From a virus (taxonomy: Duplodnaviria > Heunggongvirae > Uroviricota > Caudoviricetes), in the IMG/VR virus record IMGVR_UViG_3300000944_000006, positions 18,380-82,379 of that record: a stretch of DNA of 64,000 nucleotides. The stretch is one strand, 5' to 3'. The notes under the pieces were generated by a model. It did no database searches, had not been told where the DNA came from, and was given only the letters and a program-made list of their open reading frames with translations. A program made the position numbers and the translations under genes. Positions 3,485-63,771 of the stretch are shown piece by piece. Positions within the stretch are counted from its first letter, which is position 1, and each line of letters opens with the position of its first letter.

Positions 3485-3815
3485 ACAACGTTTGTCTAGT
3501 CAACGTTATTTTTCTTTCCCATATTTGCTTCTTGCAAAAAATAAAATAACATCCTTCGATTTCTATTTTATTTTCGTCTATGATTTTAATCTTTGCATCA
3601 TAAGACTTTTGGTTCATTGGATTGACTATCATACCTTTTAAGTCTTTGTCAAAGTCAAAAAGTATCTTTGTCCCTTTTTTGGAATATCCGCAGATATATT
3701 CTCCGCAAGGTTTTATATGTATTTCTTTTTCGTTAGGTGTCATCCAAACACCAGTTAGAAGTATCAAAGAAAGCTGTTTAAATAGTTGCATCATCCGTCG
3801 AAGATAAATCGACAA
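3468..3815 (-). CDS. hypothetical protein, probable N-terminal signal/TM segment
   Basis: Hydrophobic LSLILLTGVWM near the N-terminus. The start may be the internal MMQLF. Confidence 0.4.
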   Translation of the reverse strand: MSIYLRRMMQLFKQLSLILLTGVWMTPNEKEIHIKPCGEYICGYSKKGTKILFDFDKDLKGMIVNPMNQKSYDAKIKIIDENKIEIEGCYFIFCKKQIWERKITLTRQTLYETSL

Positions 3816-4053
3816 TAACCTTTTCTAATTTTTTCGGACAGCAGAAAATCTGCCCACGTCCATATTCAACACCATTAATAGTGTAAGATGCTTCTGTAAG
3901 AATTTGATGATTACCTTCACCAAGACCTTCCAGAATAGCCTGCCATATATTTACAGGAAGCTTTGGAAAGTCTTTATATATCCATCCTTTCCGCTTTATA
4001 TGTTGCGGTAAAGGTGGTGAAGCATCTATAAAATTTTGATATTGATTAGCCAT
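3778..4053 (-). CDS. hypothetical protein (91 aa)
   Basis: ORF in the minus-strand array. Confidence 0.4.
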   Translation of the reverse strand: MANQYQNFIDASPPLPQHIKRKGWIYKDFPKLPVNIWQAILEGLGEGNHQILTEASYTINGVEYGRGQIFCCPKKLEKVIVDLSSTDDATI

Positions 4054-14657: not shown

Positions 14658-14936
14658 TCATCGTGCCAATATTTCGTATTTTCGTAATATAATTTCATCT
14701 GATGGGATGTAATAATGTGTGATTTCGCTTTTTAGGTTTGTGTATGCAGATAAAGAATGTTTTATTTCAAAATATATAATAGAATTTAAATAGTCTTGTT
14801 CGGATAACAAGCTTCTAAAAATTTCGCTGTGTATATAAAATATTTCTTCTGGGTGGTTTCCTCGGAATCTTCGTTCGTTGTCTTTTCTCCGCGCCATAAA
14901 TCCAGTTGCTTTATATTTAAATTCAAACTTATACAT
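14658..14936 (-). CDS. small protein, FKYK...Y-x-IP-x-D-E-I family member
   Basis: N-term MYKFEFKYKATG, C-term YYIPSDEIILRKYEI. Paralog of the 14936, 15186, 39809, 40068 and 40333 genes. Confidence 0.5.
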   Translation of the reverse strand: MYKFEFKYKATGFMARRKDNERRFRGNHPEEIFYIHSEIFRSLLSEQDYLNSIIYFEIKHSLSAYTNLKSEITHYYIPSDEIILRKYEILAR

Positions 14937-15208
14937 TATATATCCGATATCTTTACGATTTCAATTTCTTCTTCTGGTATTCTAAAGTTTGCCCATTTTT
15001 TATATTCAATGAAATCGCGCTTTAAATGTACATAAAATGTATAATTCTTTTTTATCGTAATATTATGCACGCACCTTGGCCCAAAAGCTGTAGAAAATAT
15101 TATGATACGATACGACTTATACGCATGTTTCATTGTTAATGCATAGCCGCCTACAAGATGTCTTTGTTTAGCAGTAAGTTTGTATTTAAATGTCATAGAT
15201 ATTTTCAA
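14936..15208 (-). CDS. small protein, FKYKLT...IPEEEIEI family member
   Basis: MTFKYKLTAKQ ... FRIPEEEIEIVKISDI. Confidence 0.5.
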   Translation of the reverse strand: MKISMTFKYKLTAKQRHLVGGYALTMKHAYKSYRIIIFSTAFGPRCVHNITIKKNYTFYVHLKRDFIEYKKWANFRIPEEEIEIVKISDI

Positions 15209-15476
15209 TTTTATGAATAGTAATATGGTCTTCAGGAAAGCGATACTTATCTAAAGATATGAAACGGCTATGTTCTTTGTAAAAATTAATCGGATTTTCT
15301 AATGAAAAATGTATATAACATTTTTCATTCACATAATGAATTTTTCTAAATGCATCACTATAAAACGCAATTGTTTTATTAAATTGATGGACAGACTCTG
15401 GAATAGACAATACTTTCCCCATGCTAGTATGTATAATAGCACCTTCTGTTCTATATTTAAATTCTCTTTCAGACAT
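15186..15476 (-). CDS. small protein, same family
   Basis: EFKYRTEG ... YRFPEDHITIHKIENI. Confidence 0.5.
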   Translation of the reverse strand: MSEREFKYRTEGAIIHTSMGKVLSIPESVHQFNKTIAFYSDAFRKIHYVNEKCYIHFSLENPINFYKEHSRFISLDKYRFPEDHITIHKIENIYDI

Positions 15477-19595: not shown

Positions 19596-19925
19596 TTAGT
19601 CAATAAGTATCTTGTCTATTTTGACTTGATAAGATTCAATTTCATCTGATTCGTATTCGCTACCAGTGATAGTAAAATAAAGAGTGTGTGGTTGTTTTAC
19701 GCGATATTCACTAACGTTTTGCCAATTGTCTCCGTTTGCATTTGGCAATGGCGTGATATCAATATAATTGAGGATTTGTTTTGCATCAATGTCAAGATAT
19801 ATTGCATCTGTGAGTCTTGAAGGTTTAATATATAACCCAATCAAATTATCTACTTTATTGTGGATAATTTCTGAATTATAAACTATGGAACTATGCGCTT
19901 TGTATTTTTTGCCGATAATAAACAT
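19596..19925 (-). CDS. hypothetical protein (109 aa)
   Basis: ORF. Confidence 0.45.
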   Translation of the reverse strand: MFIIGKKYKAHSSIVYNSEIIHNKVDNLIGLYIKPSRLTDAIYLDIDAKQILNYIDITPLPNANGDNWQNVSEYRVKQPHTLYFTITGSEYESDEIESYQVKIDKILID

Positions 19926-19961: not shown

Positions 19962-20363
19962 TTATTCTTTGGTAAAATTTCCCCTGCCAAAGATTTTTAC
20001 ACTTGTGTACATAATACGTGCGCGATGTTTGGCAACACCAGATGCGTCCATAATATATCTGAATTCTTTGTCTGCGAAAGATTTTGTTTTTAATCCATGT
20101 TCGTAAAGATAATCGTGTATTACAGCAGCAAATGTATATTTTCCGAATGGCGGTACAAACGCCCATAATGGCCTTGGTACGCTTGCTAAATCAGTATGTG
20201 TGCCTTTGGGTATAAATATTTCTGTATCGTCAGTAAGTTTTATTTGTATGTCTCTTGTCGTAACAAATCCATATTCAGAAACTTGCGTCACTGTATTATA
20301 TTGATACTCTTTTACATAATTTCTATAATGTGCAATACCTTTATACTTAAACATTATTTTCAC
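19962..20363 (-). CDS. DUF1353-like protein
   Basis: DLASVPRPLW...FGKYTFAAVIHDYLYEHG...ADKEFRYIMD resembles the DUF1353 conserved core. Confidence 0.4.
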   Translation of the reverse strand: MKIMFKYKGIAHYRNYVKEYQYNTVTQVSEYGFVTTRDIQIKLTDDTEIFIPKGTHTDLASVPRPLWAFVPPFGKYTFAAVIHDYLYEHGLKTKSFADKEFRYIMDASGVAKHRARIMYTSVKIFGRGNFTKE

Positions 20364-20406: not shown

Positions 20407-20736
20407 TTAACATAAATTTATACTACATTGATTCAATTTCGCTGAATCTAATTTAATATTTCTTATATCGGCTCTTATAATATCTAAATTAGTCAATTTA
20501 AGGATTTCAATTGATTTAGAAGTTTTGAAATAAAGCGTTTCTTTACTATCTTTAAATTTTACGAAAACTTTGTTCAAAAAGTTTTGTTGTGTATCATTTC
20601 CTACATGAAAGTGTACACTAAATAAAACCTCACGCAACCCGTCCTCGGCATAATATCTTAAGCATACATCATTGTGGCCCATGTAATATACACTAACATC
20701 GCGTATATTTGAAAAGTCTATTTTATATTTGTACAT
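20407..20736 (-). CDS. small protein, MYKYKI family
   Basis: Starts MYKYKIDFSN. Paralogous N-termini at 20723, 28514, 29413, 33604 and 35719. Confidence 0.45.
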   Translation of the reverse strand: MYKYKIDFSNIRDVSVYYMGHNDVCLRYYAEDGLREVLFSVHFHVGNDTQQNFLNKVFVKFKDSKETLYFKTSKSIEILKLTNLDIIRADIRNIKLDSAKLNQCSINLC

Positions 20737-21100
20737 GTCTTTGCGTAACCGTGTCTACAAATCGAAAATCTTCAAATGTTAATTCGACTGTATGTGAAGG
20801 AAAATTGAAAGATGTGCTATGTATAGTTGACACACAAAGAATAGCTTCAAAATATAAAATAGATTTTTCTTTGTTAAAATGATTTATAACACGTCTTAGA
20901 ATTGAATTTGCGAAGTCAGTGTTCATTTGTTCATCGCTCGTAGGAAAAATATGTGCATAAATCTTGTGCGTACCTACAAAATAACTAACCATAACATTGC
21001 CACTATCTGTAATAATGACATCCCATGCAGTAGAAAAATCTATTTTAAATTTTTGCGGCGTTTCTAACATGGTTGAAATCTTTCTTTTCTTTAAAAGCAC
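20723..21100 (-). CDS. small protein, MYKYKI-family-like (QKFKIDFST)
   Basis: N-terminal region similar to the neighbouring gene. Confidence 0.4.
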   Translation of the reverse strand: MLLKKRKISTMLETPQKFKIDFSTAWDVIITDSGNVMVSYFVGTHKIYAHIFPTSDEQMNTDFANSILRRVINHFNKEKSILYFEAILCVSTIHSTSFNFPSHTVELTFEDFRFVDTVTQRHVQI

Positions 21101-22448
21101 CGTTATTATAAACTGTCGTTAGTTTATTGTCATCAAGTATATCATCTTCGCCTGTTGTATATTCTCCATTTAGATTAACAGATGTCAGAAATCCTTTTTT
21201 GAATTTCTTTGAATTGTTGGTGAATGATTTGAATGCGGCACGGCGTCCACCATCATCAATAAAAGAATTGGCAGAAGACATAAACTGAAACGTGTTTTTC
21301 GAAACATTTTGGTACATGCTTCCGCGCATACACAGCACAAAGTTGTTAATAGATACTTTACTTGCCTTACATAACTTAACAAAATTTTCAAAATCTTTTA
21401 GAGACTGCCAATCATACTGGAACATAATTTTAACACGATGCGAAATGCGATATCCACGGTCTGTTGTTGTCTGGGGGAAAGTTGCCAAAATCTTTTCCAT
21501 AAGCGCAATGACTTCTTCTTGTGTGATGCCGTTACCACATTTAAGATGCACTTTACGTGTTGTATATGATTCTATTTTTTCTTTTAATATTTCGCATATA
21601 TATGTTTCAACAGCATCTTCGGCATTATGTGTGTCAATAGTTAATGCGGTATTATCTGGCGTTTGCTCGCTGTCAAAGCTTTCTAAAAAGTGTTGATATG
21701 CAAGAACTTCGTTTTGAACGCCCCACGACAATGTGACAAGATTGTCATTTCCATTATATCCACTATTATCTGTAAAGAAATTAGAATAAATTTCATTTCC
21801 AATATTTACGGCAGATGTTGCTTCTGTTGTGTCAAAATTTATAAGATGTGCGATAGCTGTTATATCTGCTGTTTCCTTCGAAGACATTTCAGAAAAGCTT
21901 TCATCATGCAGTACAATATCTTCTGGGCCAATATCATCATATCCAATAGACGTTTCTTCGTCTATAATATCTTTTAAAATTTTCTTTATTTCTCGCGAAA
22001 TTGTAGCAACTGTGGATGGTAGCCATATCGCACGTAACAAAGCCTTTTCTATGTGCGACACAAGCCATGCACACTTAGGGTCTGTGTTGATGACTTGGTA
22101 TAAAGGCGTCTTAAACGGTACAACAGACCCTTCTGGCAGGGCTTGTATTTTTATTGGTATAGCGCCGTCATATGTTTTTAAAATATATTCCCATCCTTCG
22201 TAATTAAATTCCATACCAGATTTTTCTGCAACATTTTGTGCAATTTTCAAATCATCTTCTGTGATAGGTTTCGAAAGATGTTGATTTATAAAAAGGTGAT
22301 GTCCTGTATAGACCATTTCCTTAATAGGTTTGTACTTATCGTCAGACGAACCATTTGCTTCACCACACACAGACGCGTGTTCTAATGTTAATTGGTAATG
22401 ACGTGCAGCGTCAAGTTTGTGGAATAATGTGTTAAGAATAATGCTCAT
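21045..22448 (-). CDS. nicotinamide phosphoribosyltransferase (NAMPT/NadV) family protein, divergent; possibly non-catalytic
   Basis: Block EGWEYILKTYDGAIPIKIQALPEGSVVPFKTPLYQVINTDPKCAWLVSHIEKALLRAIWLPSTVATISREIKKIL aligns closely with NAMPT ([74 protein letters not shown]). Where NAMPT has HDFGYRG the phage protein has HDESFSE, and the His247-equivalent position appears to be Asp. Confidence 0.7.
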   Translation of the reverse strand: MSIILNTLFHKLDAARHYQLTLEHASVCGEANGSSDDKYKPIKEMVYTGHHLFINQHLSKPITEDDLKIAQNVAEKSGMEFNYEGWEYILKTYDGAIPIKIQALPEGSVVPFKTPLYQVINTDPKCAWLVSHIEKALLRAIWLPSTVATISREIKKILKDIIDEETSIGYDDIGPEDIVLHDESFSEMSSKETADITAIAHLINFDTTEATSAVNIGNEIYSNFFTDNSGYNGNDNLVTLSWGVQNEVLAYQHFLESFDSEQTPDNTALTIDTHNAEDAVETYICEILKEKIESYTTRKVHLKCGNGITQEEVIALMEKILATFPQTTTDRGYRISHRVKIMFQYDWQSLKDFENFVKLCKASKVSINNFVLCMRGSMYQNVSKNTFQFMSSANSFIDDGGRRAAFKSFTNNSKKFKKGFLTSVNLNGEYTTGEDDILDDNKLTTVYNNGAFKEKKDFNHVRNAAKI

Positions 22449-25183: not shown

Positions 25184-25909
25184 TTATCTTAGTCGATTAC
25201 GTCTTTTCTTGTTAGACCGCTTTTTAGACGATGCATTACCTTTAGAAAAAAGCTGCTTAGAATGTCTACTGTCTCGTTGCCCTTCTTTTGATTTAATATC
25301 GTTATCGCCAGACCTGTATTTTTCGTAGACCTTGTGTGCAGGTGATTTAAATGTCCAAAGGCGCTTTGTCATAACCTGTATTTCGCATATAACACCGTCT
25401 ATGTCGACTTTAAAATGATGACTTCCGTAATAGCCATAATCTTTATCACGACCTTTTTCTTTATAGTCATATTTAAAAATTATAGCTTTTTTCTTTAAAG
25501 CCTTTACAACTTTTTCAACTTCGTAATCGTCTTTAAGAAGAATAGCGCCTCGCAGAAAATCATGTATGTCACCTGCCGACACACCGCGCTTAAAAACTTT
25601 ATCAATAAAAGAATCTGCGGGCTTAACACCTATTAAAATTTTAGCACCTTTGCCAGATACATGTTTCATCAAACTTTCAAACTTTTTTGTCCGCACAGTG
25701 ATGTATTTCTTTGCAACAAAATCATATGCGGCAAATCTTTCATCGTCATTATTTGTAGGAAGGTCTTTAAAGTCCTTTGCCCAAGGCTGTTTCTTTACAT
25801 TAGACTTACGGCGTTCTGTCAAAAGAGAATCAAAGATGTCCCAATTTTCATTAAACTGTATTTTATTTTCTATCAAATCTTCATAATAAAAATCTGTAAA
25901 TCTATGCAT
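25184..25909 (-). CDS. RelA/SpoT-homolog small alarmone synthetase-like nucleotidyltransferase (toxSAS-like) with basic C-terminal tail
   Basis: RTKKFESLMK (R-x-K-x3-S-x2/3-K), DFLRGAIL (D-x-x-G-x-R region), YYGSHHF (Y-x-S-x-H), VICEIQVMTKRLW (E-x-Q-x-R/M-T) reproduce the RSH synthetase-domain motif order. C-terminus KKRSNKKRRNRLR. Confidence 0.65.
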   Translation of the reverse strand: MHRFTDFYYEDLIENKIQFNENWDIFDSLLTERRKSNVKKQPWAKDFKDLPTNNDDERFAAYDFVAKKYITVRTKKFESLMKHVSGKGAKILIGVKPADSFIDKVFKRGVSAGDIHDFLRGAILLKDDYEVEKVVKALKKKAIIFKYDYKEKGRDKDYGYYGSHHFKVDIDGVICEIQVMTKRLWTFKSPAHKVYEKYRSGDNDIKSKEGQRDSRHSKQLFSKGNASSKKRSNKKRRNRLR

Positions 25910-27208: not shown

Positions 27209-27502
27209 TTAAGAAAATTTTATATTGTGTATATACATTTGACCATATTCAAGATGGCCCGAATCTAATTCTAAAGACGTTTCAAAAAATTTAATATTAC
27301 CACTGTTTCTCCAAGCATATGTTAAATCATCCATATCAATTTCAAAGTAAATATATTTTGCATGTTGGGGTATGTTAGTAGAATTTGGAAAATAAATTCT
27401 GGTATATATTTTAACATTATCGAAACGTAAATAATGTCTGTGTTTACCTAAAAAGTGTCTACCATCATTTTCAGACATATTGATTTTAATTTTTTTAAGC
27501 AT
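27209..27502 (-). CDS. hypothetical small protein
   Basis: ORF in a dense array of small genes. Confidence 0.4.
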   Translation of the reverse strand: MLKKIKINMSENDGRHFLGKHRHYLRFDNVKIYTRIYFPNSTNIPQHAKYIYFEIDMDDLTYAWRNSGNIKFFETSLELDSGHLEYGQMYIHNIKFS

Positions 27503-27816
27503 TATAAAAACTTTAATCCATAGATAGGTATGTGATAAAATAATTCTTTGTTTGTAGGCAAACTTTCTTCAAAAAATTCTGGCGAATAACCTTTTTGAAG
27601 GCATAGTCTAACAGCGTCTATATCAACTAGAAAATACGCATACGAAAAATCTTCAGTAGGCGTTTGATGTGTTGGAAGGTTTATGTCACAAGATACATCT
27701 GGTTCAATTTCAACAGCAAATACTTCTGCATTACCATCACCATAAACGCTTTTGCTTACGCTTCTACGAAACATATTCATATCTATTTTTAGTTTAACTT
27801 TAGTAAGATTTTTCAT
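27502..27816 (-). CDS. hypothetical small protein
   Basis: ORF in the array. Confidence 0.4.
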   Translation of the reverse strand: MKNLTKVKLKIDMNMFRRSVSKSVYGDGNAEVFAVEIEPDVSCDINLPTHQTPTEDFSYAYFLVDIDAVRLCLQKGYSPEFFEESLPTNKELFYHIPIYGLKFL

Positions 27817-28157
27817 TTTATAATAATTTCATGCATCGGTAAAAACCACGCGTTAGGTTCTCCGTTTTCATATCTAGGCAATTGGTTATAATAAATAGTA
27901 TCACAAAGTACAGGTGAATTATGTAATTTTTTCAGCACTTTATTAATTGCGTTAATATCACACTTAAAATAGATATTTTTCTCTCGGTGGTCGTTAAAAG
28001 AAATTATAGGCAATATAGTATCTACGCCCTTACGACTTTTGTGGAATCTAAAATAAATTCTTTTACCCAAATTGATGTCAAAAACCCATTCGTAAATACC
28101 ATCAGAATAAAAAGCGTCTGGACTATATAATTTAACATTAACCTTATTCATGTGCAT
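27813..28157 (-). CDS. hypothetical small protein
   Basis: ORF in the array. Confidence 0.4.
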   Translation of the reverse strand: MHMNKVNVKLYSPDAFYSDGIYEWVFDINLGKRIYFRFHKSRKGVDTILPIISFNDHREKNIYFKCDINAINKVLKKLHNSPVLCDTIYYNQLPRYENGEPNAWFLPMHEIIIK

Positions 28158-28533
28158 TATCCAAGATTTTTACAATTCTTCCAACAGTATTTGCGCCATC
28201 CCATGTTCTACATTTTCCTAAACATTCTTCAACAACGTTTATACGTTTTCCGCTTCTAAGAAATTCTTCTATTACATTAGGTGGTAAACTACACTTAAAT
28301 AAAATCGTATATTCGACACTTTTTACGTGGGTTTTATCTAACATAAAATTTTTTAATTTTCCATATGTGAGTGGCGATATATAAAAATCAAATGTATTAT
28401 ATTCTTCCAGACCTTTTCCTACCATAGTTTCTATGACATGAGTTTGTGTATCGCCAGAATCTAATTCTGTCGTGATATAGCTATTCTCTATGGAAGTTAT
28501 ATTTATTTTATAGTTATGTAACATCATCACCAA
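28144..28533 (-). CDS. hypothetical small protein
   Basis: ORF in the array. Confidence 0.4.
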   Translation of the reverse strand: MVMMLHNYKINITSIENSYITTELDSGDTQTHVIETMVGKGLEEYNTFDFYISPLTYGKLKNFMLDKTHVKSVEYTILFKCSLPPNVIEEFLRSGKRINVVEECLGKCRTWDGANTVGRIVKILDNAHE

Positions 28534-28924
28534 GCTTTTTAATATGTGTTATTTTTCCGCGTATAGCCATACCTTCATGCATCGATTTTGGCGTAATACC
28601 ATCTTCCAAAAAATTTATACGAGGTTGGTAAGAGGTATTTCTATCAAATTCTTTAAAAAAATAAAACATCTCTGCTGCAGAGATAGAGCATTCAAAAAAT
28701 ATTTCAACGTGGTTTATTATACCTGTGCCAACAATTTGTTCATTAAGGTTATGCAAGGAATATAAAAACTCTCTGTGTCCGTTTCTTAAATAGAAATCAA
28801 ATGGATTGGAACAGATATAATCACCATCAATAGTCAAGTGAAAACCAACTTCAATAAAGTCATTTTTTGTATCGGCATATTTTTCAAAACATATATTTTC
28901 AGCAATTATTTTATACTTATACAT
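28514..28924 (-). CDS. small protein, MYKYKI family
   Basis: MYKYKIIAEN. Start set at the MYKYK methionine. Confidence 0.45.
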   Translation of the reverse strand: MYKYKIIAENICFEKYADTKNDFIEVGFHLTIDGDYICSNPFDFYLRNGHREFLYSLHNLNEQIVGTGIINHVEIFFECSISAAEMFYFFKEFDRNTSYQPRINFLEDGITPKSMHEGMAIRGKITHIKKLGDDVT

Positions 28925-28938
28925 TTTTTCTGTCATTA

Positions 28939-29406
28939 TTATTCACCATCAATTTCTGTCAAACAGGATATATCCCAAAAACATCCAGACGCACAATCCC
29001 ATCCATAATACCAGTTTATATCATAGCGACAAGACCATTGATAAGGCGTTATTAAAATACCTTTATACGCACCATAAACCTTTTTCCAATCTATTCTGTA
29101 AAGACTAAGCAAGCCACCATTATTAGGATTTGGCTTTGCCCATTTCTTGTCAAATCGGCGTAATTCACTTTGCGATTTGATATGCAAAACATCTGTCATG
29201 TCGACATCAAATTTATACTCATGCTCACATTTTCTAAATGATTCGGTATCGCACCATGTTTTCCACCCAAGTTCTTGTTCATCAGACAACCAAAAACCGA
29301 CAGGCTTACCACATGCGCCTTCGTCTTTATCATATACTTCGAAAGAGCGGTTCTTATCGAACTGCCAATCTTCGGGATTACGTGATGGAAAATGTGATAA
29401 TATCAT
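28939..29406 (-). CDS. hypothetical Cys/Trp-rich protein
   Basis: GWDCASGCFWDISC motif. No family assigned. Confidence 0.4.
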   Translation of the reverse strand: MILSHFPSRNPEDWQFDKNRSFEVYDKDEGACGKPVGFWLSDEQELGWKTWCDTESFRKCEHEYKFDVDMTDVLHIKSQSELRRFDKKWAKPNPNNGGLLSLYRIDWKKVYGAYKGILITPYQWSCRYDINWYYGWDCASGCFWDISCLTEIDGE

Positions 29407-29412
29407 AATAGT

Positions 29413-29799
29413 CTATTCGTTATATACTGTAATACCGCTTCTTTCATCAACAATCTTGATTATATTACCTGTCGGCATTTGACCGAAAGAATAAGAATTT
29501 GTCTCTGGCGTTTCTAATATGTTTAAGCGGCGAGAGATTTTCTCGTCTCCTGTCTCAAAATATCCAATAATGTGGTCTTTGTGCATATCACATTCAAAGT
29601 ATAATGTATATTCGCCCGTAATTTTATCAATAGATTCAAATAAAGAAACTCTTTTATAGTCATCAAAATAAAAATCAATAATATTTGTATCTCGATGTTT
29701 TTTGTAACTATCGCTGTAGCATTCTATAAACTTTAAAGAATCTTCATCAGAGTAGATACTTAGACTAATAGACGTTATTTTTATTTTATACTTGTACAT
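29413..29799 (-). CDS. small protein, MYKYKI family
   Basis: MYKYKIKITS. Confidence 0.45.
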   Translation of the reverse strand: MYKYKIKITSISLSIYSDEDSLKFIECYSDSYKKHRDTNIIDFYFDDYKRVSLFESIDKITGEYTLYFECDMHKDHIIGYFETGDEKISRRLNILETPETNSYSFGQMPTGNIIKIVDERSGITVYNE

Positions 29800-31428: not shown

Positions 31429-31499
31429 TGGAGGAATACTAGGGACTCGAACCCCATGCTTTAAGGATTGAAAGCCTTAGCAAACCCGCGTTGTATTCC
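31429..31499 (-). ncRNA. tRNA-like element with non-canonical structure (7-bp acceptor GGAATAC/GTATTCC, T-arm GGGGTTCGAGTCCC, CCA end, short D-arm, apparent 8-nt anticodon loop CTTTCAAT)
   Basis: Hand folding gives a perfect acceptor stem, canonical T-arm and encoded CCA, but only 11 nt for the D region and the stem TAAGG/CCTTA closing an 8-nt loop. Confidence 0.4.
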
Positions 31500-33603: not shown

Positions 33604-33981
33604 CTATCGTGTTATCTTAACAAGATTAACGCCCATTACATCTGTGAAAGATAATATACGATTAGATTCTTTAATAGGCGGATTATTAGATTTGAAATAA
33701 AAAGTATTTGGATATTTTTCAAAATATCTATCGACTATAGTATCCTTTATATAGTATTTAGATTTGTCTTTATTTGGGTATTTGTCATTGTAGACATACA
33801 GATACTGATTACTGTCGCGCAAATTAACATTAAAATAATCCAACATTTCTTCATATAATTTCACATTGTTCTCAAAAACAATGCAGTTGGAATCGCCTAA
33901 TCCAAAAACCACGCTTGATATTCTTGTATCAAATTCTATAAGCGAAACTTTATTAAAAGGTATTTTGAATTTATACATCAT
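33604..33981 (-). CDS. small protein, MYKYKI family (MMYKFKIPF)
   Basis: N-terminal family motif. Confidence 0.45.
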   Translation of the reverse strand: MMYKFKIPFNKVSLIEFDTRISSVVFGLGDSNCIVFENNVKLYEEMLDYFNVNLRDSNQYLYVYNDKYPNKDKSKYYIKDTIVDRYFEKYPNTFYFKSNNPPIKESNRILSFTDVMGVNLVKITR

Positions 33982-34345
33982 ATTTTCTAATTTTACGAAT
34001 ACAGTTCAAAATTTTAAATTTATAACGTTCCTTATCCTTTTTTTGAATATCTAAAAACAAGTATAAAGAAGGGTCTTGTTTTCTTACCCATTTTGCTAAT
34101 CTGCGTGAATATAATGTCCCGTAATTATCAAGACGGCTTGCCCAATACTCTTGCCGAACATCATGAGATGAAAACTTGGTTTCTTGGTCAAGATATAAAA
34201 TTTTACTTAGGTCAAATTTACAATGCTTCTTGCGGAAAAAATTATATATTTTACGCAAAGTTTTTCGCTTAGGGCTATATGCCCAAAACCAAAGATTTTC
34301 TAACAGACGTGAAAACTTCCGAAGTATTTTAAGTTTAAATAGCAC
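33971..34345 (-). CDS. hypothetical basic protein (124 aa)
   Basis: ORF, K/R rich. Confidence 0.4.
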   Translation of the reverse strand: MLFKLKILRKFSRLLENLWFWAYSPKRKTLRKIYNFFRKKHCKFDLSKILYLDQETKFSSHDVRQEYWASRLDNYGTLYSRRLAKWVRKQDPSLYLFLDIQKKDKERYKFKILNCIRKIRKYDV

Positions 34346-34346
34346 T

Positions 34347-34742
34347 TTACTTTTTCTTCTTACGTCTTGCTTTTTCAGCTATAATCGCATCTTCATTTTC
34401 ATCATACCAAGATTGCCATTTTTCAAGCTTTTTTTCGTATTGTTTGATATCTATATCATAAGAATAATCTGATTGGATATACTGTATGCAAAAATATACT
34501 TCATCACCATCGCCACGATACATACCACCTTCATATTCGAAAGAGCATTTCGAAAAGTCGTTTACAGGTGTCCACAATTGAGGGTCTACGCGTGTAGAAA
34601 AATATCCTTTTTCTTCGCCTGCTATAAACTTATCAAACACATCTTTTAATTGCTGAATAGTTTGGTCGGTGATTGCTTCCCAATATACACGATGGTCGAC
34701 AGTTTTCTTTTCTGGCTTAACAGGTTTTTTTCTTAAAATCAT
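34347..34742 (-). CDS. hypothetical protein (131 aa)
   Basis: ORF. Confidence 0.45.
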   Translation of the reverse strand: MILRKKPVKPEKKTVDHRVYWEAITDQTIQQLKDVFDKFIAGEEKGYFSTRVDPQLWTPVNDFSKCSFEYEGGMYRGDGDEVYFCIQYIQSDYSYDIDIKQYEKKLEKWQSWYDENEDAIIAEKARRKKKK

Positions 34743-34770
34743 AATAAAGAATATCCATAATAAATTTAGT

Positions 34771-35067
34771 CTAAATCTTAGACATTTTCAAATATTTATC
34801 AAGAACAAAATCCATAGAATATCGTTCTTTGTGTACGCGTGTTCTAAATGCGCCATTTTCTTCGCTGATAATAAAATCTGATATTTGTACAATACGCGTA
34901 TTTAAATCATGCAGACCGCTAAGTTTTTTGAAGGTAAGTTTGAAAAAGTCGCCAACATTTTCTTTGGTAAAGAACACTGTTTCGTTGCCAGTGTTCTTTA
35001 AAATTTCTTCCATATCCGTCTTAAGACTAATAGAGACATATGCATAAAATGTGTGCGTATTTTTCAT
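34771..35067 (-). CDS. hypothetical protein (98 aa)
   Basis: ORF. Confidence 0.4.
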   Translation of the reverse strand: MKNTHTFYAYVSISLKTDMEEILKNTGNETVFFTKENVGDFFKLTFKKLSGLHDLNTRIVQISDFIISEENGAFRTRVHKERYSMDFVLDKYLKMSKI

Positions 35068-35102
35068 AATAAGCCATATATTATTGACTTATTTTAAGTG
35101 TG

Positions 35103-35741
35103 TCAAACTATATTTGGCATGTCGTTATAAAAATCTACAAAGACATCATATACGTCTGCAAGAGCAACAAAATCACAAGACGCATCATCTATACCATCAC
35201 TGTTTAAATCTGCTGTGCTATTAGTTGTCACAAGTATTCCTAAAGGTTCTCCATATTCAGAAACAACAGGCGAACCAGACATTCCACCACCTACAGGCTG
35301 ATAATATATATGTTCATAGGCGTCATGCGACAATATAAGTGGTGGATTTTCCATTTTGGCTATCCAAGTAGGTGTTACATAACCATCAGAACCAGAAACA
35401 TCTCTTTTGTAATGAACGCGCATAACACGTTCTGAAAGATGCCCTGAAGCATGGGGGTATCCCCACGTATAAAGCCTTTCCCCGCGTTTTGGTTCGCGTG
35501 GTCTAGCCATAGAAGATAAATTACAACCGATTAAAGCTGCGTCTATAACACCTGTTCCTGCCATTATTTCTCCGCTCACAAATGGTGGTAGTTTACGTTC
35601 TTGTTCTTTTAAAACATGCATAGCAGTTACCCAACCACCTGCCCATTGCCAATATGTTCCAGACGCTTCTACACGCTTTGATGCGTGGAAATGCTTTTTT
35701 ATTATAAATCCAAAGTCTTCAGGTCTTTTCATCACAATCAT
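35103..35741 (-). CDS. trypsin/chymotrypsin-like serine peptidase
   Basis: Candidate catalytic His in TAMHVLKE and an oxyanion/Ser motif GGGMSGSPVV (GDSGGP-like). Locally GC-richer codon usage. Confidence 0.5.
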   Translation of the reverse strand: MIVMKRPEDFGFIIKKHFHASKRVEASGTYWQWAGGWVTAMHVLKEQERKLPPFVSGEIMAGTGVIDAALIGCNLSSMARPREPKRGERLYTWGYPHASGHLSERVMRVHYKRDVSGSDGYVTPTWIAKMENPPLILSHDAYEHIYYQPVGGGMSGSPVVSEYGEPLGILVTTNSTADLNSDGIDDASCDFVALADVYDVFVDFYNDMPNIV

Positions 35742-36021
35742 ATTTATAAATTATTTTTACAATACGTGTTTCATCAACAAAATAAATTCTTTGTAAAAAG
35801 TTTTCTATGCACAGTTGGTTCCAAAATTTAGTCGATGGCCCCATTCCTGTATTAATAAGTTCAAGCATTTTTTCGTCGTGAATACTATCTAATGGTATCG
35901 TTAAGGGTGTGCCCTGAATGTTCAAATTTATTTGAACATGTGGACTTGGATATGAAAAATTATCAGAAGTAGAAAGATATATACTATGTATGTCTTCAGT
36001 TTTAATATAAAATTTATACAT
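35719..36021 (-). CDS. small protein, MYKYKI family (MYKFYIKTED)
   Basis: Start set at the family methionine. Confidence 0.4.
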   Translation of the reverse strand: MYKFYIKTEDIHSIYLSTSDNFSYPSPHVQINLNIQGTPLTIPLDSIHDEKMLELINTGMGPSTKFWNQLCIENFLQRIYFVDETRIVKIIYKYDCDEKT

Positions 36022-36352
36022 AATCAATACCAACAATAGTTTTCATATTTGCGAAATAGATTCTTTTAATACCATCTGGTAATTTAATTTTATGCCATGC
36101 CTCATTATCTTGTGGTATAGGAGTTTGTTGCAACAACATACTTTGAAAAATTGGACATAATATGTGTTCAAACGATAATGTAAAATCTAATTGGCATTCT
36201 GTTTTCGTGCGTATATTTCGTGTAATTATATTTGCAGTATTTTGACTATATACATAGTTATTAGCAGACGCCAACCATATATACGGGTCGATATTTTTTC
36301 GTTGTATATAAAATTTCTCATAGTAGCAGTCATTTGTCATAGAGTTTCCCAT
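36014..36352 (-). CDS. hypothetical small protein
   Basis: ORF. Confidence 0.4.
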   Translation of the reverse strand: MGNSMTNDCYYEKFYIQRKNIDPYIWLASANNYVYSQNTANIITRNIRTKTECQLDFTLSFEHILCPIFQSMLLQQTPIPQDNEAWHKIKLPDGIKRIYFANMKTIVGIDYV

Positions 36353-36702
36353 ACAACATGGTCTATATCAGCATCAAGAAATAAACCATACGAATCTGAA
36401 GAAAATTCGTTTAATCTTGGATTAGATAAAAATATTTTTTTAAAGCCAAGATTATTTGAGTACACATATCTCCAATTTGTATCAGTATATCCAATTTTAC
36501 ATTTTGAATGTAAAAAGCCATTTAAAAATTTTCTACTATATAAGCATCTAATGGAAAATTCATTAAGACCGCCATGAAATATGACTATATTTTCATTTAC
36601 GTCAGAATAATTTTTATTTGTTGACGTAGAAATCAAAAATTTATTTACAATTCTACCATCTATAGTAAATTTTTTCGGTATATCTGTTATACTATGCTTC
36701 AT
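36337..36702 (-). CDS. hypothetical protein (121 aa)
   Basis: ORF. Confidence 0.4.
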   Translation of the reverse strand: MKHSITDIPKKFTIDGRIVNKFLISTSTNKNYSDVNENIVIFHGGLNEFSIRCLYSRKFLNGFLHSKCKIGYTDTNWRYVYSNNLGFKKIFLSNPRLNEFSSDSYGLFLDADIDHVVWETL

Positions 36703-36750
36703 AATATCTACGCTCTCACAGCATGGTCTAAGTTAGTTAATAAATTATTT

Positions 36751-37038
36751 TTATGAGAATCGGTAGAAGATGAAAGTGCAAATGCTGATATCTTCGATAG
36801 AAAGAGGGTCGATAGGTGTCCAATAATCTGTTTGATGCGGTTTTAAATACTTTAAAAATATTTTGTTAGTTTCTCTGGATTTTCGTATCAAAATTCTGTT
36901 TGATACAGCACCATATACTGGAAAAATTGCAACAGTTCCTATAGGATAAATTCTATGAAATGATGTGGCAACCGACATAGAACTTATGTCAGATACTTTG
37001 ATAAGAAATTTTTGTGGTAAAACAAAAGTATTTGACAT
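36751..37038 (-). CDS. hypothetical protein (95 aa)
   Basis: ORF. Confidence 0.4.
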   Translation of the reverse strand: MSNTFVLPQKFLIKVSDISSMSVATSFHRIYPIGTVAIFPVYGAVSNRILIRKSRETNKIFLKYLKPHQTDYWTPIDPLSIEDISICTFIFYRFS

Positions 37039-39753: not shown

Positions 39754-39822
39754 ATGTCGCGCGAACATATTAATGTATTCGAAATTCCAGAAGATGAAAT
39801 TGTACATCATGTCGAAGCATAG
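39754..39822 (+). pseudogene. 22-codon minigene retaining only the C-terminal family motif (MSREHINVFEIPEDEIVHHVEA), preceded by a strong SD
   Basis: AGGAGAA 9 nt before the ATG. The peptide ends with the IPEDEI signature of the FKYKLTG family, whose intact members follow directly downstream. Confidence 0.4.
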
Positions 39823-40087
39823 ATACAAATATAAATTGACGGGGGAAATTGAGGAAGGCATTTTTAGTAATTTCTATATGTGGTGCAGTTCGAATAACAC
39901 AGGCAATAAAAATATATTTTTAGGCATTAAAGAATTAGAATCATATAATCTTGGAATTTCCACAGTGTATTTTACTTTGCCGAAAACCATTAATTCCTAT
40001 ATAGCACATGATAAATCTACTATTGTCACTTATTCAATACCAAATGGTGTTGTAGAAATTATATCGGTTGTATCACATGATTCATAA
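39809..40087 (+). CDS. small protein, FKYKLTG...Y-x-IP family member
   Basis: MSKHRYKYKLTGEIEEG ... YSIPNGVVEII. Start set at the ATG at 39809. Confidence 0.5.
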   Translation: MSKHRYKYKLTGEIEEGIFSNFYMWCSSNNTGNKNIFLGIKELESYNLGISTVYFTLPKTINSYIAHDKSTIVTYSIPNGVVEIISVVSHDS

Positions 40088-40355
40088 TTACAAAGTAACA
40101 TGCGAAGTGCAACAACTTAACCGTGGAGTAATTTATCTATATCTCAATGTTTATAAGAATGGTGTTGGTAATAAAATGATTTGTATAGATTCTAATTTAC
40201 TAGAACCATATATTAACATAGGAAACGTAATTTTATATTTTATCACCAAAAATAAAATTCATACTTACTACAGTAAATCGAAAAGTGGTATAACATATGA
40301 TGTTTATACAATACCAGATGACGACATAAGGATTGTCCGATATGTTCAAATATAA
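40068..40355 (+). CDS. small protein, same family
   Basis: C-terminus YDVYTIPDDDIRIV. Confidence 0.5.
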   Translation: MYHMIHNYKVTCEVQQLNRGVIYLYLNVYKNGVGNKMICIDSNLLEPYINIGNVILYFITKNKIHTYYSKSKSGITYDVYTIPDDDIRIVRYVQI

Positions 40356-40629
40356 ATTGACAGGTATTATAACAGATTGTGATGGTGAAACATCCTTATA
40401 CCATTATGTCTCTGAAGAAAAAGAGATATATGTTGATTGTCCCAAATTGCAAAATATACACACAAACAATTCAAAAGTAACTGTATATTTTACAACACCA
40501 AAGTTTATAGAATCTTATTTAAATACAAGCGACAGCGACAGTAATTATGATGTTTATACAATACCAGAAGACGAAATGGAAATTATGTCAAGCGATATCG
40601 TCATAGATAAATGGGAAGATGGTAGTTAA
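40333..40629 (+). CDS. small protein, same family
   Basis: MSDMFKYKLTGIITDCDG ... YDVYTIPEDEMEIM. Confidence 0.5.
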   Translation: MSDMFKYKLTGIITDCDGETSLYHYVSEEKEIYVDCPKLQNIHTNNSKVTVYFTTPKFIESYLNTSDSDSNYDVYTIPEDEMEIMSSDIVIDKWEDGS

Positions 40630-42448: not shown

Positions 42449-43945
42449 TTATATTTTCTCCCACCTATCCGTTATAGGGCGTCCTACAGGGGCCATAGAA
42501 AAGTTTTTGTATCCATACTTAGATATAAGATTAACAATGTTCTTAACGTACTCATGATTGCAGTCAGACACCAAACGATTTACTAAACCATGTTCATCAA
42601 TATATTCCAGTGTTAAAACACAATGGTCGTAATCATGTGAATGGTCGTCATTAATTGAACATACAGTAAGACGTAGCGCATCTTTGGGGAAGTTGTAATC
42701 CTGTCTAAGACGATAATAAACTTCCAATGCCATGTCTTCGCAGTTATGTCCTAAAATACCATTTTCAAAAACAAATGTAGACGTTCCTGCTACTGTTATA
42801 TCGTAACACTTCTTCACGCCATTAGAAGTAATATCTTTAGTTTTTATCCTAGTTTGCCCAAGACCTTCAAAACCATAGTCTTTTTGATGTGAAGAATTTT
42901 TGTTATATATTACTCTATATATAGGCTGTGTTCCAGAACCGCCATGTTTCTCTTGCGTGTAAATTCTAGCAGACTTACCAACACGCAGTAAAGCGGCCTG
43001 TATCCATTCAGCAAATTTTTTACATGACGTTGAATATGTTTTATCAGGTTCCGTACCCCATCCACCGTTACTAGATTTTACATGATAATGTCCATCACCT
43101 AAAAAATATCCTTCAAGTATATAATTTAGACATACTTCTGGAAGATTTAAGTATTTGTCCATACGAATATCAAAAGAATTTTCCTTAAGTGGTTTTAAGA
43201 AATCCTTAAACCAAGACTTCAAAAATCTTACACAAGGAACACCAGAATTATTTTTAAATAATGTATAAGGAATTTTATATTTATCTAAAATAGGAAGAAT
43301 AAATTCAGGAATGTCATGTCCAGATGTAGAAACTTTACTAATTTTATTACTTCCCTGCGGACGGTCTACCCATCCTTCTGCAAGATAATGTCCCACAACA
43401 AACCAAATATCGTCATCAAGAACATTCTCAATTTCTGTGTATGGTAGATTTAAAGCACACGGAACATATTCCCAATGAACACTCTTTCCATCAATAATTT
43501 CTTTCAATTTTCTTTTTGTGTATCCGTTTTGTTGTTGTTTTTCTTTAGACCACATATTATGATTTTCTGTAACAACAATTTCATTTCCGTTATGAAACGG
43601 TACAGTAAAGGTTTCTAAATTTCCTTTATCCATTTTATTTATGATAACTTTATCAATATATTTTTTTTCGACAAAATCATAAGACATACAAACATCACCT
43701 ATTTGTGCATCTTTGATTGGAACAGCTACATATTCATCATTACGTTTTAACCATATTTTTTGATTTTCTTCTACACAATCACCTAATAGAATAGGTCTGC
43801 CAAAGAAATCCACATCAACAGTAGGACGCGTCCAGTGTTCAGGTACTGCCCAATTATTTTGGTCTGAACGCCATACGAAAATAGATTTAACATCCTCATG
43901 TACTTTTTTAAAAGTAGCTACCTGTGCGTGTGTAAGTTTTAACAT
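42449..43945 (-). CDS. intein-containing protein: 153-aa extein resembling a papain/transglutaminase-like Cys hydrolase, split by a 345-aa LAGLIDADG intein
   Basis: Intein blocks: C at N-junction (LLGD/CVEENQ), VVTENHNMW (T-x-x-H block B), two LAGLIDADG motifs (FVVGHYLAEGWV, ILEGYFLGDGHY), C-terminal YDITV...FENGILGHN followed by C. Spliced extein junction GDCEDMA (G-x-C-x-x-x-A) plus downstream HSHDYDH suggests a Cys-His-Asp hydrolase. Confidence 0.6.
   Translation of the reverse strand: MLKLTHAQVATFKKVHEDVKSIFVWRSDQNNWAVPEHWTRPTVDVDFFGRPILLGDCVEENQKIWLKRNDEYVAVPIKDAQIGDVCMSYDFVEKKYIDKVIINKMDKGNLETFTVPFHNGNEIVVTENHNMWSKEKQQQNGYTKRKLKEIIDGKSVHWEYVPCALNLPYTEIENVLDDDIWFVVGHYLAEGWVDRPQGSNKISKVSTSGHDIPEFILPILDKYKIPYTLFKNNSGVPCVRFLKSWFKDFLKPLKENSFDIRMDKYLNLPEVCLNYILEGYFLGDGHYHVKSSNGGWGTEPDKTYSTSCKKFAEWIQAALLRVGKSARIYTQEKHGGSGTQPIYRVIYNKNSSHQKDYGFEGLGQTRIKTKDITSNGVKKCYDITVAGTSTFVFENGILGHNCEDMALEVYYRLRQDYNFPKDALRLTVCSINDDHSHDYDHCVLTLEYIDEHGLVNRLVSDCNHEYVKNIVNLISKYGYKNFSMAPVGRPITDRWEKI
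42743..43777 (-). mobile_element. LAGLIDADG homing-endonuclease intein (about 345 aa)
   Basis: Boundaries computed from junctions ...PILLGD|CVEEN and ...GILGHN|CEDMA. Confidence 0.6.
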
Positions 43946-47069: not shown

Positions 47070-48596
47070 TTACGCCTGTACCCATGTGTCTGTTCCACCA
47101 CTATTTATAACTCTTCTATATAGTATTCCATCATCACCTTCGCGAATTTCTGCCCGAATAGCTTCTGGTGTCCATCCAAGCATAAGAGTTTCATCGTCAT
47201 TATCTGCAATACCCACAGAAGTTGTTCCGTTTTGACTTCTTATAGAAATTGTCTCTTGGAAATGGTCTGCGCCATTTTGAACAACAACAGTAATAGGTAC
47301 GTTAGCAATAATTACACCTGCGCCTAACGTACCTACAAGTGTATTTGTGGCTTCTGCGTCATTTGATATTAGACCTGCTGTAGGATGATTTTGGTCTTCT
47401 TTAGAATTAACTGTGACATTTGTACGATTAAGTGGTACGGTATATCTTAACACTAAAGAACTTGTTGCTGCATCCCATTCATAGACTTTAGCTTCACCTA
47501 CATATGGTGATGCAATAGCAACACCTGAATTGCCCCCATCGCCATTGTCGGCAATATAAAATGGTTGTGCAACAACTTGTGACATAGCTGTAACAGGCAT
47601 AGCAGGTGATGCTTCAAGACCTGCACTATCTGCGCCTGAATACCATGTACCAAGACCATTAATAAGTGTTCTTGTAGCGCCATTTGGTTCGTAATCTGAA
47701 TCTGTTGCGCCTGTGATAGAATCAATAGGTTGTGGCGATGCAGGATTTACAGTAAAACTTCCACTCACACCGTCCCTAACATAATAGTTGAAAACAGTTC
47801 CTGAAAAAGGTGCTGAAGCGTCACCAGAACGCGGCCAAGATATTAAATCATTTGATAGTGGCATGATAAGACGGCTATCATAATATTGATTAGAATCCAT
47901 ATTTGCGTTTGTACATGCCATGACGGGATTAGCCCCTTCAAGAATATATTCACGAACGCCTGTGCCGTGCAATTCGATATATTCCCAAGGGGCTAGTTTT
48001 ATATCTTCTTGTCCGTCAATTGTATTACCAAAACCGTCTGTTAATTTAATTGTATTTGCAAGAGGGCCGTTAACAACATGTATCAAACCTTCGTTTAAAT
48101 TTGTATTAGAACCAAAGTTTCTAAACCCAAAGAAGAATGTAAAATCAAAACCTAAACCGTATGACAATAGTGGCATAGGCGATTCATTACTGCCTGTAAC
48201 TTGGTCAGAAACACCATAAAAACCTTGTGTAGATGTGATGATAGCGCCATTAGAAAGACCTGTAAAAACGATAGGTTCGCCAAGAGACATAAATTCTCGA
48301 TAAAGAACGTTCCCCGCATTAAAGTCTGCGCCAGATGCATAAACTTCTATTGTATTTCCGTTTCCTAAAGAGACGCCTTGAACTTTACCAGTGTCCGTGT
48401 AACCAACAGCCAAAACAGTTAGCGCAGGTTGCCCTGCATTTGCTAAAAGCTGTTGTTCAAGACCTAGTGTAGACCCTGAAGCAATATCTCCTACATCAGA
48501 AATAAGTGCTACAGGGTTTTCGACAGTTGCAGCAGGATTTCCACCCACTTCAAATGCCGATGTACCGTCTTTAGTAATATCGACTAAAGAACGCAT
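47070..48596 (-). CDS. putative tail fibre/structural protein (Gly/Ser/Thr/Asn-rich, 508 aa)
   Basis: Composition and size typical of fibre proteins. Much higher GC and small-residue content than neighbouring genes. Confidence 0.45.
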   Translation of the reverse strand: MRSLVDITKDGTSAFEVGGNPAATVENPVALISDVGDIASGSTLGLEQQLLANAGQPALTVLAVGYTDTGKVQGVSLGNGNTIEVYASGADFNAGNVLYREFMSLGEPIVFTGLSNGAIITSTQGFYGVSDQVTGSNESPMPLLSYGLGFDFTFFFGFRNFGSNTNLNEGLIHVVNGPLANTIKLTDGFGNTIDGQEDIKLAPWEYIELHGTGVREYILEGANPVMACTNANMDSNQYYDSRLIMPLSNDLISWPRSGDASAPFSGTVFNYYVRDGVSGSFTVNPASPQPIDSITGATDSDYEPNGATRTLINGLGTWYSGADSAGLEASPAMPVTAMSQVVAQPFYIADNGDGGNSGVAIASPYVGEAKVYEWDAATSSLVLRYTVPLNRTNVTVNSKEDQNHPTAGLISNDAEATNTLVGTLGAGVIIANVPITVVVQNGADHFQETISIRSQNGTTSVGIADNDDETLMLGWTPEAIRAEIREGDDGILYRRVINSGGTDTWVQA

Positions 48597-54235: not shown

Positions 54236-54350
54236 GTGCGCGTAACCAAGCTGTGAAAATATCTTCGTCAGAAACTACAATATTATGCTTAGTCATAAGT
54301 TTCTGTAATTTTTGTATAATACTATGCTTCACAAGCAAAACATTCTCCAT
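54147..54350 (-). CDS. hypothetical protein downstream of nrdA
   Basis: Start set at internal MENVLLVK. Confidence 0.35.
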   Translation of the reverse strand: MENVLLVKHSIIQKLQKLMTKHNIVVSDEDIFTAWLRAHEGVWNDDVPDDFDNVMSKIIPHVNVHFE

Positions 54351-63748: not shown

Positions 63749-63771
63749 AATATTATTTATAAGATAACAAA

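Follow-up and report, generated by a model that had tools for sequence, protein, structure and literature searches.

The MYKYKI start of scattered small phage genes: probable first strand of a tandemly amplified protein family in a divergent T4-like phage

Background

The 64,000-nucleotide stretch of tailed-phage DNA analysed here and referred to as the window (positions 18,380 to 82,379 of IMG/VR record IMGVR_UViG_3300000944_000006) carries long runs of very small genes, several of which begin with nearly the same six residues, MYKYKI, and otherwise hardly resemble each other. The question raised by this locus is what such a start represents: a segment inherited together with the rest of the protein, a signal attached to unrelated proteins, or a stretch of nucleotides kept for the sake of translation. 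An initial annotation had described these genes as a second family of small proteins and had suggested either a shared N-terminal beta strand or a conserved translation-initiation region on rapidly evolving accessory proteins. Here we argue that MYKYKI probably represents a conserved first beta strand, common to the proteins (~90-140 residues) of a large multigene family that is specific to its lineage and was tandemly amplified in a divergent T4-like phage. Motif counts in the window refer to its 126 called proteins, and the comparison was extended to 10 kb beyond each end of the window, taken from the same sample (L003 at the high end, L004 at the low end). Genes are designated by their low coordinate.

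Results and discussion

Occurrence of the motif

All six N-termini from which the initial annotation started (MYKYKIDFSN, QKFKIDFST, MYKYKIIAEN, MYKYKIKITS, MMYKFKIPFN and MYKFYIKTED) are present within open reading frames (ORFs) in the window. Each had been listed under the low coordinate of a minus-strand ORF, which is its stop-codon end; the corresponding start codons are at 20736, 28924 (in an ORF open to 28936), 29799, 33978 (with an extra Met at 33981) and 36021, and QKFKIDFST occupies residues 6-14 of the ORF that starts at 21070.

The window is A+T-rich (G+C 30-39%), the six motif codons consist of A and T except for the G of ATG, and K, Y, I and F are abundant in the proteome, all of which might favour a chance or compositional origin of the motif. 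However, M[YF]K[YF][KY]I is found at residues 1-6 of five of the 126 proteins, all from minus-strand ORFs, compared to 0.0015 expected from composition and ~0.004 according to a rough hand estimate with position-specific N-terminal frequencies; another hand estimate, with six equiprobable residues, gives ~0.005 for three identical pentapeptides. For the shorter pattern [FY]KYK there are eight cases among the first 20 residues of the proteins and none at 17,147 internal positions, where the strict pentapeptide pattern is found once; the flanks contribute thirteen more motif-bearing genes. The motif is thus real, far beyond chance and specific to N-termini; the expected counts, the restriction of [FY]KYK to N-termini and the flanking genes refute a chance origin, to which we assign a negligible probability.

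The only internal in-frame case of the strict pattern, YKFKI, lies near the C-terminus of a 124-aa basic protein (33971-34345, minus strand), which starts with (V)LFKLKILRKF and ends with ...KERYKFKILNCIRKIRKYDV; it is located just upstream of the MYKFKI start of 33604.

A tandem family of six genes

The runs of 90-150-aa minus-strand genes noted earlier at 27209-29799 and 33604-36702 are real. The first run comprises one tandem family of six paralogs (hereafter SIX) and an unrelated gene, 28939-29406 (Table 1). This assignment is based on the full-length alignment of three of the genes (28144-28533, 28514-28924 and 29413-29799; 30-34% identity), on profile links, and on a common central block. 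The profile of 27209 and 27502 (a pair with z=6.4) retrieves 27813 at E=0.005, and the profile of the aligned trio retrieves the same gene at E=0.013. The central block, written as [YFL]F[EKL][CIV][DS], matches exactly the six SIX genes among the 126 proteins, at equivalent relative positions, and the six-way alignment reveals further common blocks, including FD[FI] and the C-terminal GQM...I..I. The best-conserved columns are the N-terminal K.K, the FD pair and the Y-F-x-C block. A strong terminator-like hairpin (30841-30814) precedes the unit that holds this run.

The starts of the six proteins form a gradient: MYKYKIKI, MYKYKIIA, MLHNYKINI, MNKVNVKL, (MKNL)TKVKLKI and MLKKIKIN, with the strict MYKYKI kept in only two of them. 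As the starts grade into each other within one family, the strict hexapeptide is best regarded as the best-preserved form of an inherited first segment rather than as an element attached to unrelated genes. Tandem arrays of adjacent genes homologous over their full length are found not only here but also in the trios at 14658-15476 and 39773-40629 and in the flanks. Outside the trio 28144/28514/29413, the similarity of the bodies is at or below the limit of pairwise detection, in agreement with their previously noted divergence; when the bodies were compared in pairs by Smith-Waterman z-scores, motif bearers scored only marginally higher (P=0.015, with non-independent pairs).

Table 1. Genes with the N-terminal motif, their array neighbours, and T4 core markers in the low-end flank
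Feature	Coordinates	Strand	Size (aa)	Start	Remarks
SIX member	29413-29799	-	128	MYKYKIKITS	central LYFECD
SIX member	28514-28924	-	136	MYKYKIIAEN	central FFECS; ORF open to ATG 28936 (MTEK...)
SIX member	28144-28533	-		(M)MLHNYKINITS, degenerate	likely ATG 28527 or 28524; central LFKCS
SIX member	27813-28157	-		M(H)MNKVNVKLY	central IYFKCD; bridges the pair 27209/27502 to the trio 28144-29799
SIX member	27502-27816	-		MKNLTKVKLKID	central AYFLVD; z=6.4 with 27209
SIX member	27209-27502	-		MLKKIKINM	central IYFEID; matched by FKYKLTG-type body-only profile at 12.2 bits
Non-member interrupting the SIX array	28939-29406	-	155		without motif; hhalign control P=0.2
FKYKLTG-type member by body	20407-20736	-	109	MYKYKIDFSN	E=0.0011 without first 10 residues
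Probable FKYKLTG-type member (weak evidence)	20723-21070	-	115	QKFKIDFST at residues 6-14	body-only E=0.0047, later 0.13
FKYKLTG-type, three tandem genes	14658-14936, 14936-15208, 15186-15476	-
FKYKLTG-type, three tandem genes	39773-40087, 40068-40355, 40333-40629	+
Candidate by body only	19596-19925	-	109	MFIIGKKYKAH, loosely motif-like	13.5 bits vs best decoy 10.5; P=0.001 (31 mid columns)
ORF with motif	33604-33978	-	124	MYKFKIPFNK	mid motif TFYFK; P=0.0069, N-terminal columns only
First gene of probable four-gene array D	35719-36021	-	100	MYKFYIKTED	z=4.9 with 36014
Probable array D, three more genes	36014-36352, 36337-36702, 36751-37038	-			E=0.022 and 0.21
gp32 single-strand-binding protein	L004 2112-3038				T4 core marker; the three markers lie 2-7 kb below window start
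gp53 baseplate protein	L004 7080-7550				T4 core marker
gp33-like coactivator	L004 1055-1288				T4 core marker

Conservation at the level of protein

The near-identity of the first 15-17 nt reported in the initial annotation holds for 20407, 28514 and 29413 (16-17 of 18 nt); in 33604 and 35719, codon 4 is TTC/TTT and, in the latter, codon 5 is TAT. The 60 nt upstream of the five MYKYKI-type starts are dissimilar, and no Shine-Dalgarno sequence was found in them. Among the eight motif genes, Tyr2 is encoded by TAC in three and Lys3 by AAG in three, compared to a genome usage of 20% and 25%, respectively. As the upstream DNA is unlike and these codons are close to genome usage, conservation operates mainly at the level of amino acids. 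The only unusual codon choice concerns Ile6, which is ATA in seven of the eight genes vs 38% genome-wide. The motif is also retained in proteins extended at the N-terminus by up to 11 residues. An analysis of direct repeats around the starts revealed no conserved DNA cassette other than the coding motif, and a scan for promoters was uninformative (109 found vs 93 expected).

It may nonetheless be proposed that ATG-TAY-AAR-TAT-AAA-ATA is kept in order to drive expression, by combining a motif of the early-elongation ramp with re-initiation coupled to the stop codon of the preceding gene. In Escherichia coli, AADUAU and AAVAUU (K|N-Y|I) at codons 3-5 are the most enriched motifs of high expressers (Verma et al. 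2019, PMC6920384), and the K-Y and K-I at codons 3-6 of the phage genes correspond to them: K3-Y4 is AAR TAT, which matches AADUAU, in 20407, 28514 and 29413, and K-I follows at codons 5-6. Nearly every member abuts or overlaps its upstream gene by 1-26 nt, and at four of the five strict starts the TAA of the upstream gene falls within the motif's TAT-AAA, 8 or 14 nt after the ATG and always in the same relative frame, an arrangement that would couple termination to re-initiation without a Shine-Dalgarno sequence. The lack of such a sequence at the five starts and the preference for ATA at Ile6 are in line with this proposal.

The resemblance is, however, incomplete. The match at codons 3-4 is missing in 33604 (K3-F4) and 35719, codons 5-6 are AAA ATA rather than AAVAUU, and the published effect was measured only in E. 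coli. K|N-Y|I at codons 3-5 is found in three of the other 121 genes (2.6 expected), i.e. it is not enriched outside the family, and within the family the motif tolerates displacement by 5-11 residues, away from codons 2-6. Overlaps of 1, 4, 8 and 14 nt are common throughout the window regardless of the motif, and the predicted folding of the start region is undistinguished (-2.76 vs -3.06 kcal/mol for other genes, P=0.37). Together with the unconserved upstream DNA and the varying synonymous sites of codons 2-3, these results lend little support to the suggested translation-initiation region, and we regard a translational element as an improbable cause of the conservation.

One family or several

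Profiles built from the window alone did not join 20407, 20723, 33604 and 35719 to either SIX or the FKYKLTG-type trios beyond the first 6-11 columns, and a link between the groups emerged only once the flanking members were included. About 5 kb past the high end of the window, three tandem genes start with MYKFKIRG, MYKFKISG and MYKFRISG. At 2-8 kb past the low end there are ten motif genes in three arrays, with the starts MSYKYKLTGQ, MYKYKLTGQ (two genes), MIYKYKFVGT, MYKYKFTGQ and MYKIQFTGK, and ..LYKYFIEGY, MIKKFKLQGK, ..CYKYKITGR and ..KKLYIEGY. Read side by side, these starts are literal intermediates between MYKYKI and FKYKLTG. To our hand estimate, the family amounts to ~33 candidates in ~84 kb, or about a fifth of the genes there.

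In body-only searches the first 10-12 residues were deleted from both the profiles and the targets. With this precaution, the profile of the L003 trio matches 40333 at E=7.6e-8, the B+F profile matches 20407 at E=0.0011, and an iterative search recruits the L004 genes, followed by 20407 (13.4 bits), 19596, a gene at L004:7583 and the SIX member 27209 (12.2 bits), compared to a best score of 10.5 bits among 588 reversed and shuffled decoys. From the decoy-calibrated E-values, ~0.2 false matches are expected among these four recruits. On this evidence the FKYKLTG-type genes, the MYKYKLTGQ and MYKFKISG genes of the flanks and 20407 form a single family, and there is no support for the MYKYKI genes as a distinct second one: their motif grades into FKYKLTG through the flanking genes and through the matches of body-only profiles. 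The automatic (and public) gene call for 20407 starts at an internal Met and gives a protein of 91 aa; as its upstream-extended form begins with MYKYKIDFSNI, in common with the QKFKIDFSTA of its neighbour, we take the correct protein to be that of 109 aa, whose reading frame has a 14-nt overlap with the gene upstream.

The 21-member alignment of the FKYKLTG-type family (A8), whose best-conserved columns are the N-terminal [YF]-K-[YF]-K..G and the central h-[YF]-F, aligns with SIX in hhalign at a local P=3.8e-4 (N-terminal 13 columns) and a global P=0.0014 (99 columns), while eleven control proteins gave local P >=0.035 and global P >=0.06. We infer that SIX and the FKYKLTG-type family have a common origin, and with moderate confidence we place SIX, the FKYKLTG-type genes, the flanking genes and 20407 in one superfamily. 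The body of 33604 could not be placed in any subfamily. The four genes of the probable array D have in common KF.I near the start and [RK]I[YF][FL] later in the sequence; in the three genes that follow 35719, the motifs EKFYIQ, KKFTID and QKFLIK follow the start by 8-11 residues, at residues 9-12.

The most serious rival, as the full-length evidence is modest, is a separate origin of SIX and the FKYKLTG-type family, with array D (35719-37038) and 33604 as further unrelated small beta-rich proteins that converged on a similar amphipathic first strand (K alternating with aromatic residues, then I/L), which would suit both A+T-rich coding and small beta folds. Such convergence would agree with the restriction of the hhalign alignments between the groups to N-terminal columns, with the unlike topologies of the structural models discussed below, with the general enrichment of the N-termini of this genome in F, L, I, N, K and Y (0.50 vs 0.41 elsewhere), and with the occurrence of MFKYKG on a DUF1353 protein whose homologues lack it. 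On the other hand, it would have to account for an identical MYKYKI in members of two groups (probability ~1e-5 per position), for the same order of the N-terminal and the central YF motif in both, for the global hhalign score well beyond the controls, for the joint presence of N-terminal and mid motifs (post hoc Fisher P=0.005), and for the recruitment of 27209 by the body-only profile of the other group above all decoys. We consider separate origins unlikely.

A weak paralog pair is formed by 19596-19925 and 3778-4053, both on the minus strand (z=6.4, BLASTP E=0.008).

Predicted structure and the possibility of a tag

AlphaFold was run for 29413 and 20407 on alignments of three sequences each. 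Both models are of low confidence (predicted local distance difference test, pLDDT, 56 and predicted template modelling score, pTM, 0.55 for 29413; pLDDT 64 and pTM 0.58 for 20407), and both predict a strand at the motif, at residues 2-8 and 2-7, respectively. The first ten residues reach pLDDT 71-75 in both, above the average of either model. The N-terminal beta strand proposed in the initial annotation is thus borne out by these predictions.

A start related to the motif is also found outside the small-protein arrays' own families. The DUF1353 protein encoded at 19962-20354 (minus strand) begins with MFKYKG, while its closest homologue (61% identity) begins with MVHHN and others with MSRFT or MGKFN. 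The family motif is therefore present on a protein of a different, known family. This single case is compatible with chance (~0.1-0.3 expected, by hand estimate), and it is the one datum in favour of a transferable tag.

The nearest precedent for such a tag is provided by bacteriophage T4, in which the internal proteins IPI, IPII and IPIII carry a conserved N-terminal capsid-targeting sequence (PMC3012670); as in the present case, a short conserved N-terminal peptide stands on divergent small proteins encoded at variable loci of a T4-type phage. By analogy, the motif could be a functional tag on varied cargo, used for targeting to the capsid, as with the T4 internal proteins, which are packaged and injected, or for recognition by a phage chaperone or protease. 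The T4-like nature of the phage, the strictly N-terminal position of [FY]KYK, the strong divergence of the bodies and the DUF1353 protein would all fit. The T4 capsid-targeting sequence is MKTYQEFIAE, to which the start of the family bears no sequence resemblance. Moreover, the [L/I]-x-E cleavage site of the prohead protease, which should directly follow a targeting peptide, is inconsistent: it is found in 28514 (IIAE) and 33604 (SLIE) and, as read directly from the sequences, it is absent near the start of 20407, 29413, 35719 and the MYKYKLTGQ genes. In many members the motif lies 5-11 residues away from the extreme start, both AlphaFold models place it in a sheet as strand 1 at better than their average confidence, and thirty-odd packaged paralogs would be unusual. 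Since, in contrast to the T4 case, bodies of one group are related to each other, the motif appears to be inherited together with the protein, not added to unrelated cargo, and a cargo tag of this kind is hardly likely.

A broader version, in which the [YF]K[YF]K[IL] start serves as an address or expression tag (for entry into the capsid and injection, for a chaperone, or for coupled translation at a high level) on at least 30 diversified small effectors, seems rather improbable to us. Were it correct, the phage would hold a large tagged library of host-targeting proteins, far above the three-member set of T4 internal proteins.

A probable inherited first strand: assessment and proposed scenario

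Several observations weigh against the interpretation of the motif as the first strand of one amplified family. The regular expressions used here were defined post hoc, after the sequences had been inspected, and, judged by the decoy database, the HMMER E-values are ~5-50 times too optimistic. The local profile-profile alignment of SIX with the FKYKLTG-type family spans only 9-13 N-terminal columns; after truncation, hhalign of SIX vs A8 gives P=0.016, on the central YF block alone. 33604 and the array 35719-37038 are attached only via N-terminal columns (P=0.007-0.008). The two structural models differ in topology, and at pLDDT 56 and 64 both are of low confidence. The DUF1353 protein starts with MFKYKG while its homologues elsewhere do not. 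Finally, the function is wholly inferred, and the searches found no homologue, domain or structural match.

Even so, we favour the amplified family as the probable explanation. The sequences show tandem duplication, deep divergence and two short segments conserved as protein. In the scenario that we propose, repeated tandem duplication enlarged the family in plastic (non-core) parts of the genome, and its members then diverged almost past recognition, with two conserved strands presumably forming the folding core while the loops and C-terminal parts diversified. Given the abutting or overlapping genes (1-26 nt) and the absence of Shine-Dalgarno sequences at the five starts checked, the genes may be expressed as translationally coupled polycistronic arrays. 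Their products could be accessory binders involved in host interaction or counter-defence, as is typical for the small genes of T4-type plastic regions (PMC4122927). The description of the genes as rapidly diverging, accessory-type small proteins is supported.

The lineage and its parallels

Three genes of the low-end flank have precomputed Pfam matches to T4 core proteins, namely PF08804 (gp32), PF11246 (gp53) and PF16805 (gp33-like coactivator), which identify a very divergent T4-like phage; it is a remote member of the T4 superfamily. Neither the nucleotide sequence of the window nor its proteins match any of 50,697 deposited phage genomes, and INPHARED, IMG/VR and the JGI metagenomes yielded no related genome; the identical sequence is present in Logan assemblies of run SRR2835688 and in a 151-kb JGI contig.

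The same holds for the family itself. When 29413 and 33604 were compared to 5.8e9 proteins by a word-indexed search, only self-matches or nothing came back, and the same was true of tblastn and megablast searches of the 50,697 phage records and of pattern scans of IMG/VR and the JGI metagenomes. A profile of three paralogs, run with HMMER against the full set of 1.84e9 representative proteins, gave no credible homologue; its sole extra match, a 1135-aa repeat protein, was judged spurious. All members score below the gathering thresholds of Pfam. The best score, that of 20723 with Tad8 (16 bits vs a cut-off of 27, E=0.009), was dismissed for lack of significance. Scans of 21 members against PHROGs gave single matches only, with E >0.002, and the 21-member profile had no match among PDB sequences at E up to 1. 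No related locus was found with NAMPT as a synteny anchor, and the contig (L002) that encodes the closest DUF1353 homologue differs in its neighbouring genes and shows no synteny. With no homologue in protein, Pfam, PHROG, PDB, deposited-phage, IMG/VR or JGI-metagenome collections, the family is new, while features of its kind are familiar: arrays of paralogs that are specific to a lineage and occupy plastic regions of large phage genomes.

T4-like phages combine a conserved core genome with a hyperplastic periphery that contains arrays of small variable ORFs (PMC4122927). The arrays described here are similar in that small ORFs of unknown function are densely packed, mostly on one strand, between core and replication genes (gp32, gp53 and the gp33-like coactivator in the flank; ribonucleotide reductase, primase, ligase and Seg endonucleases in the window) and have no homologues outside the lineage. 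They are different in that a single family, or two related ones, supplies ~33 candidates, whereas the usual description of plastic regions is one of mixed ORFans without relationship to each other. An array of ORFan paralogs in such a region would by itself be expected; the present case stands out by how large the expansion is and by the survival of a six-residue start where the rest of the protein has decayed. Multigene families are also known from other large DNA viruses: the multigene families (MGF) of African swine fever virus, the "genomic accordion" of poxviruses and the tandem paralogs of mimivirus. Like the phage family, they exhibit tandem duplication and rapid divergence of accessory host-interaction genes recognisable mainly by short conserved segments. 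However, those are viruses of eukaryotes with larger proteins, and for some of them a role in host range or immune evasion has been demonstrated.

If our interpretation is correct, a single family of small proteins has amplified itself to roughly a fifth of the genes in 84 kb, and it illustrates cleanly how far paralogs can diverge in nature while retaining two short strands. Expansions of this type usually mark the interface of an arms race between phage and host, which makes the family a promising source of new activities in host takeover or counter-defence. The practical lesson is that automatic gene calls can miss the true start, as in 20407, and that clustering at the level of sequence may split one family into several.

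Other features of the window

Coding is almost wholly on the minus strand (110 of 127 crude gene calls). The window encodes both subunits of ribonucleotide reductase, a primase, a nicotinamide phosphoribosyltransferase of NAD salvage (NAMPT), a DNA ligase, a protein with a RelA/SpoT-like domain, three tRNAs, the catalytic domain of a class-I (Cys-type) tRNA synthetase and two SegE-type GIY-YIG endonucleases. A 508-aa protein (47070-48596) matches neither any capsid family nor any known phage. The small-gene arrays have as neighbours NAMPT, the RelA/SpoT-like protein, the DUF1353 protein, an Xre-type helix-turn-helix protein, a trypsin-like peptidase and an SPFH protein, a setting in keeping with the proposed role of their products in host interaction. 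NAMPT (21045-22448, minus strand) and the RelA/SpoT nucleotide-pyrophosphokinase domain (25184-25909, minus strand; 241 aa, 26.5 bits vs a cut-off of 27) lie among the arrays themselves, which would fit a counter-defence neighbourhood.

The two SegE-type homing endonucleases are paralogs (39% identity, E=1e-34) located near opposite ends of the window (722-1420, plus strand, and 63077-63817, minus strand), and one of them contains NUMOD3 and I-TevI DNA-binding domains. An intein with a LAGLIDADG endonuclease splits the large subunit of ribonucleotide reductase (54322-57135, minus strand), and a 498-aa ORF (42449-43945, minus strand) likewise contains intein-splicing and LAGLIDADG domains, in a host protein that matches no family. 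The tRNA synthetase gene (1437-2537, minus strand; 366 aa) encodes a full class-I Cys-type catalytic domain (E=1.8e-111), an unusual cargo for a phage; as 366 aa seems too few for a cysteinyl-tRNA synthetase, the protein may lack the anticodon-binding part.

A tRNA-like sequence at 31432-31499 (minus strand) scores 22.1 bits against an Rfam threshold of 29 and was missed by ARAGORN. Its acceptor stem and T arm are intact, the D arm is shortened, and the anticodon loop has 8 nt (CUUUCAAU), which could be read as containing the anticodon UCA or an anticodon of four bases. The sequence may represent a tRNA in decay or else an unusual tRNA for suppression or frameshifting.

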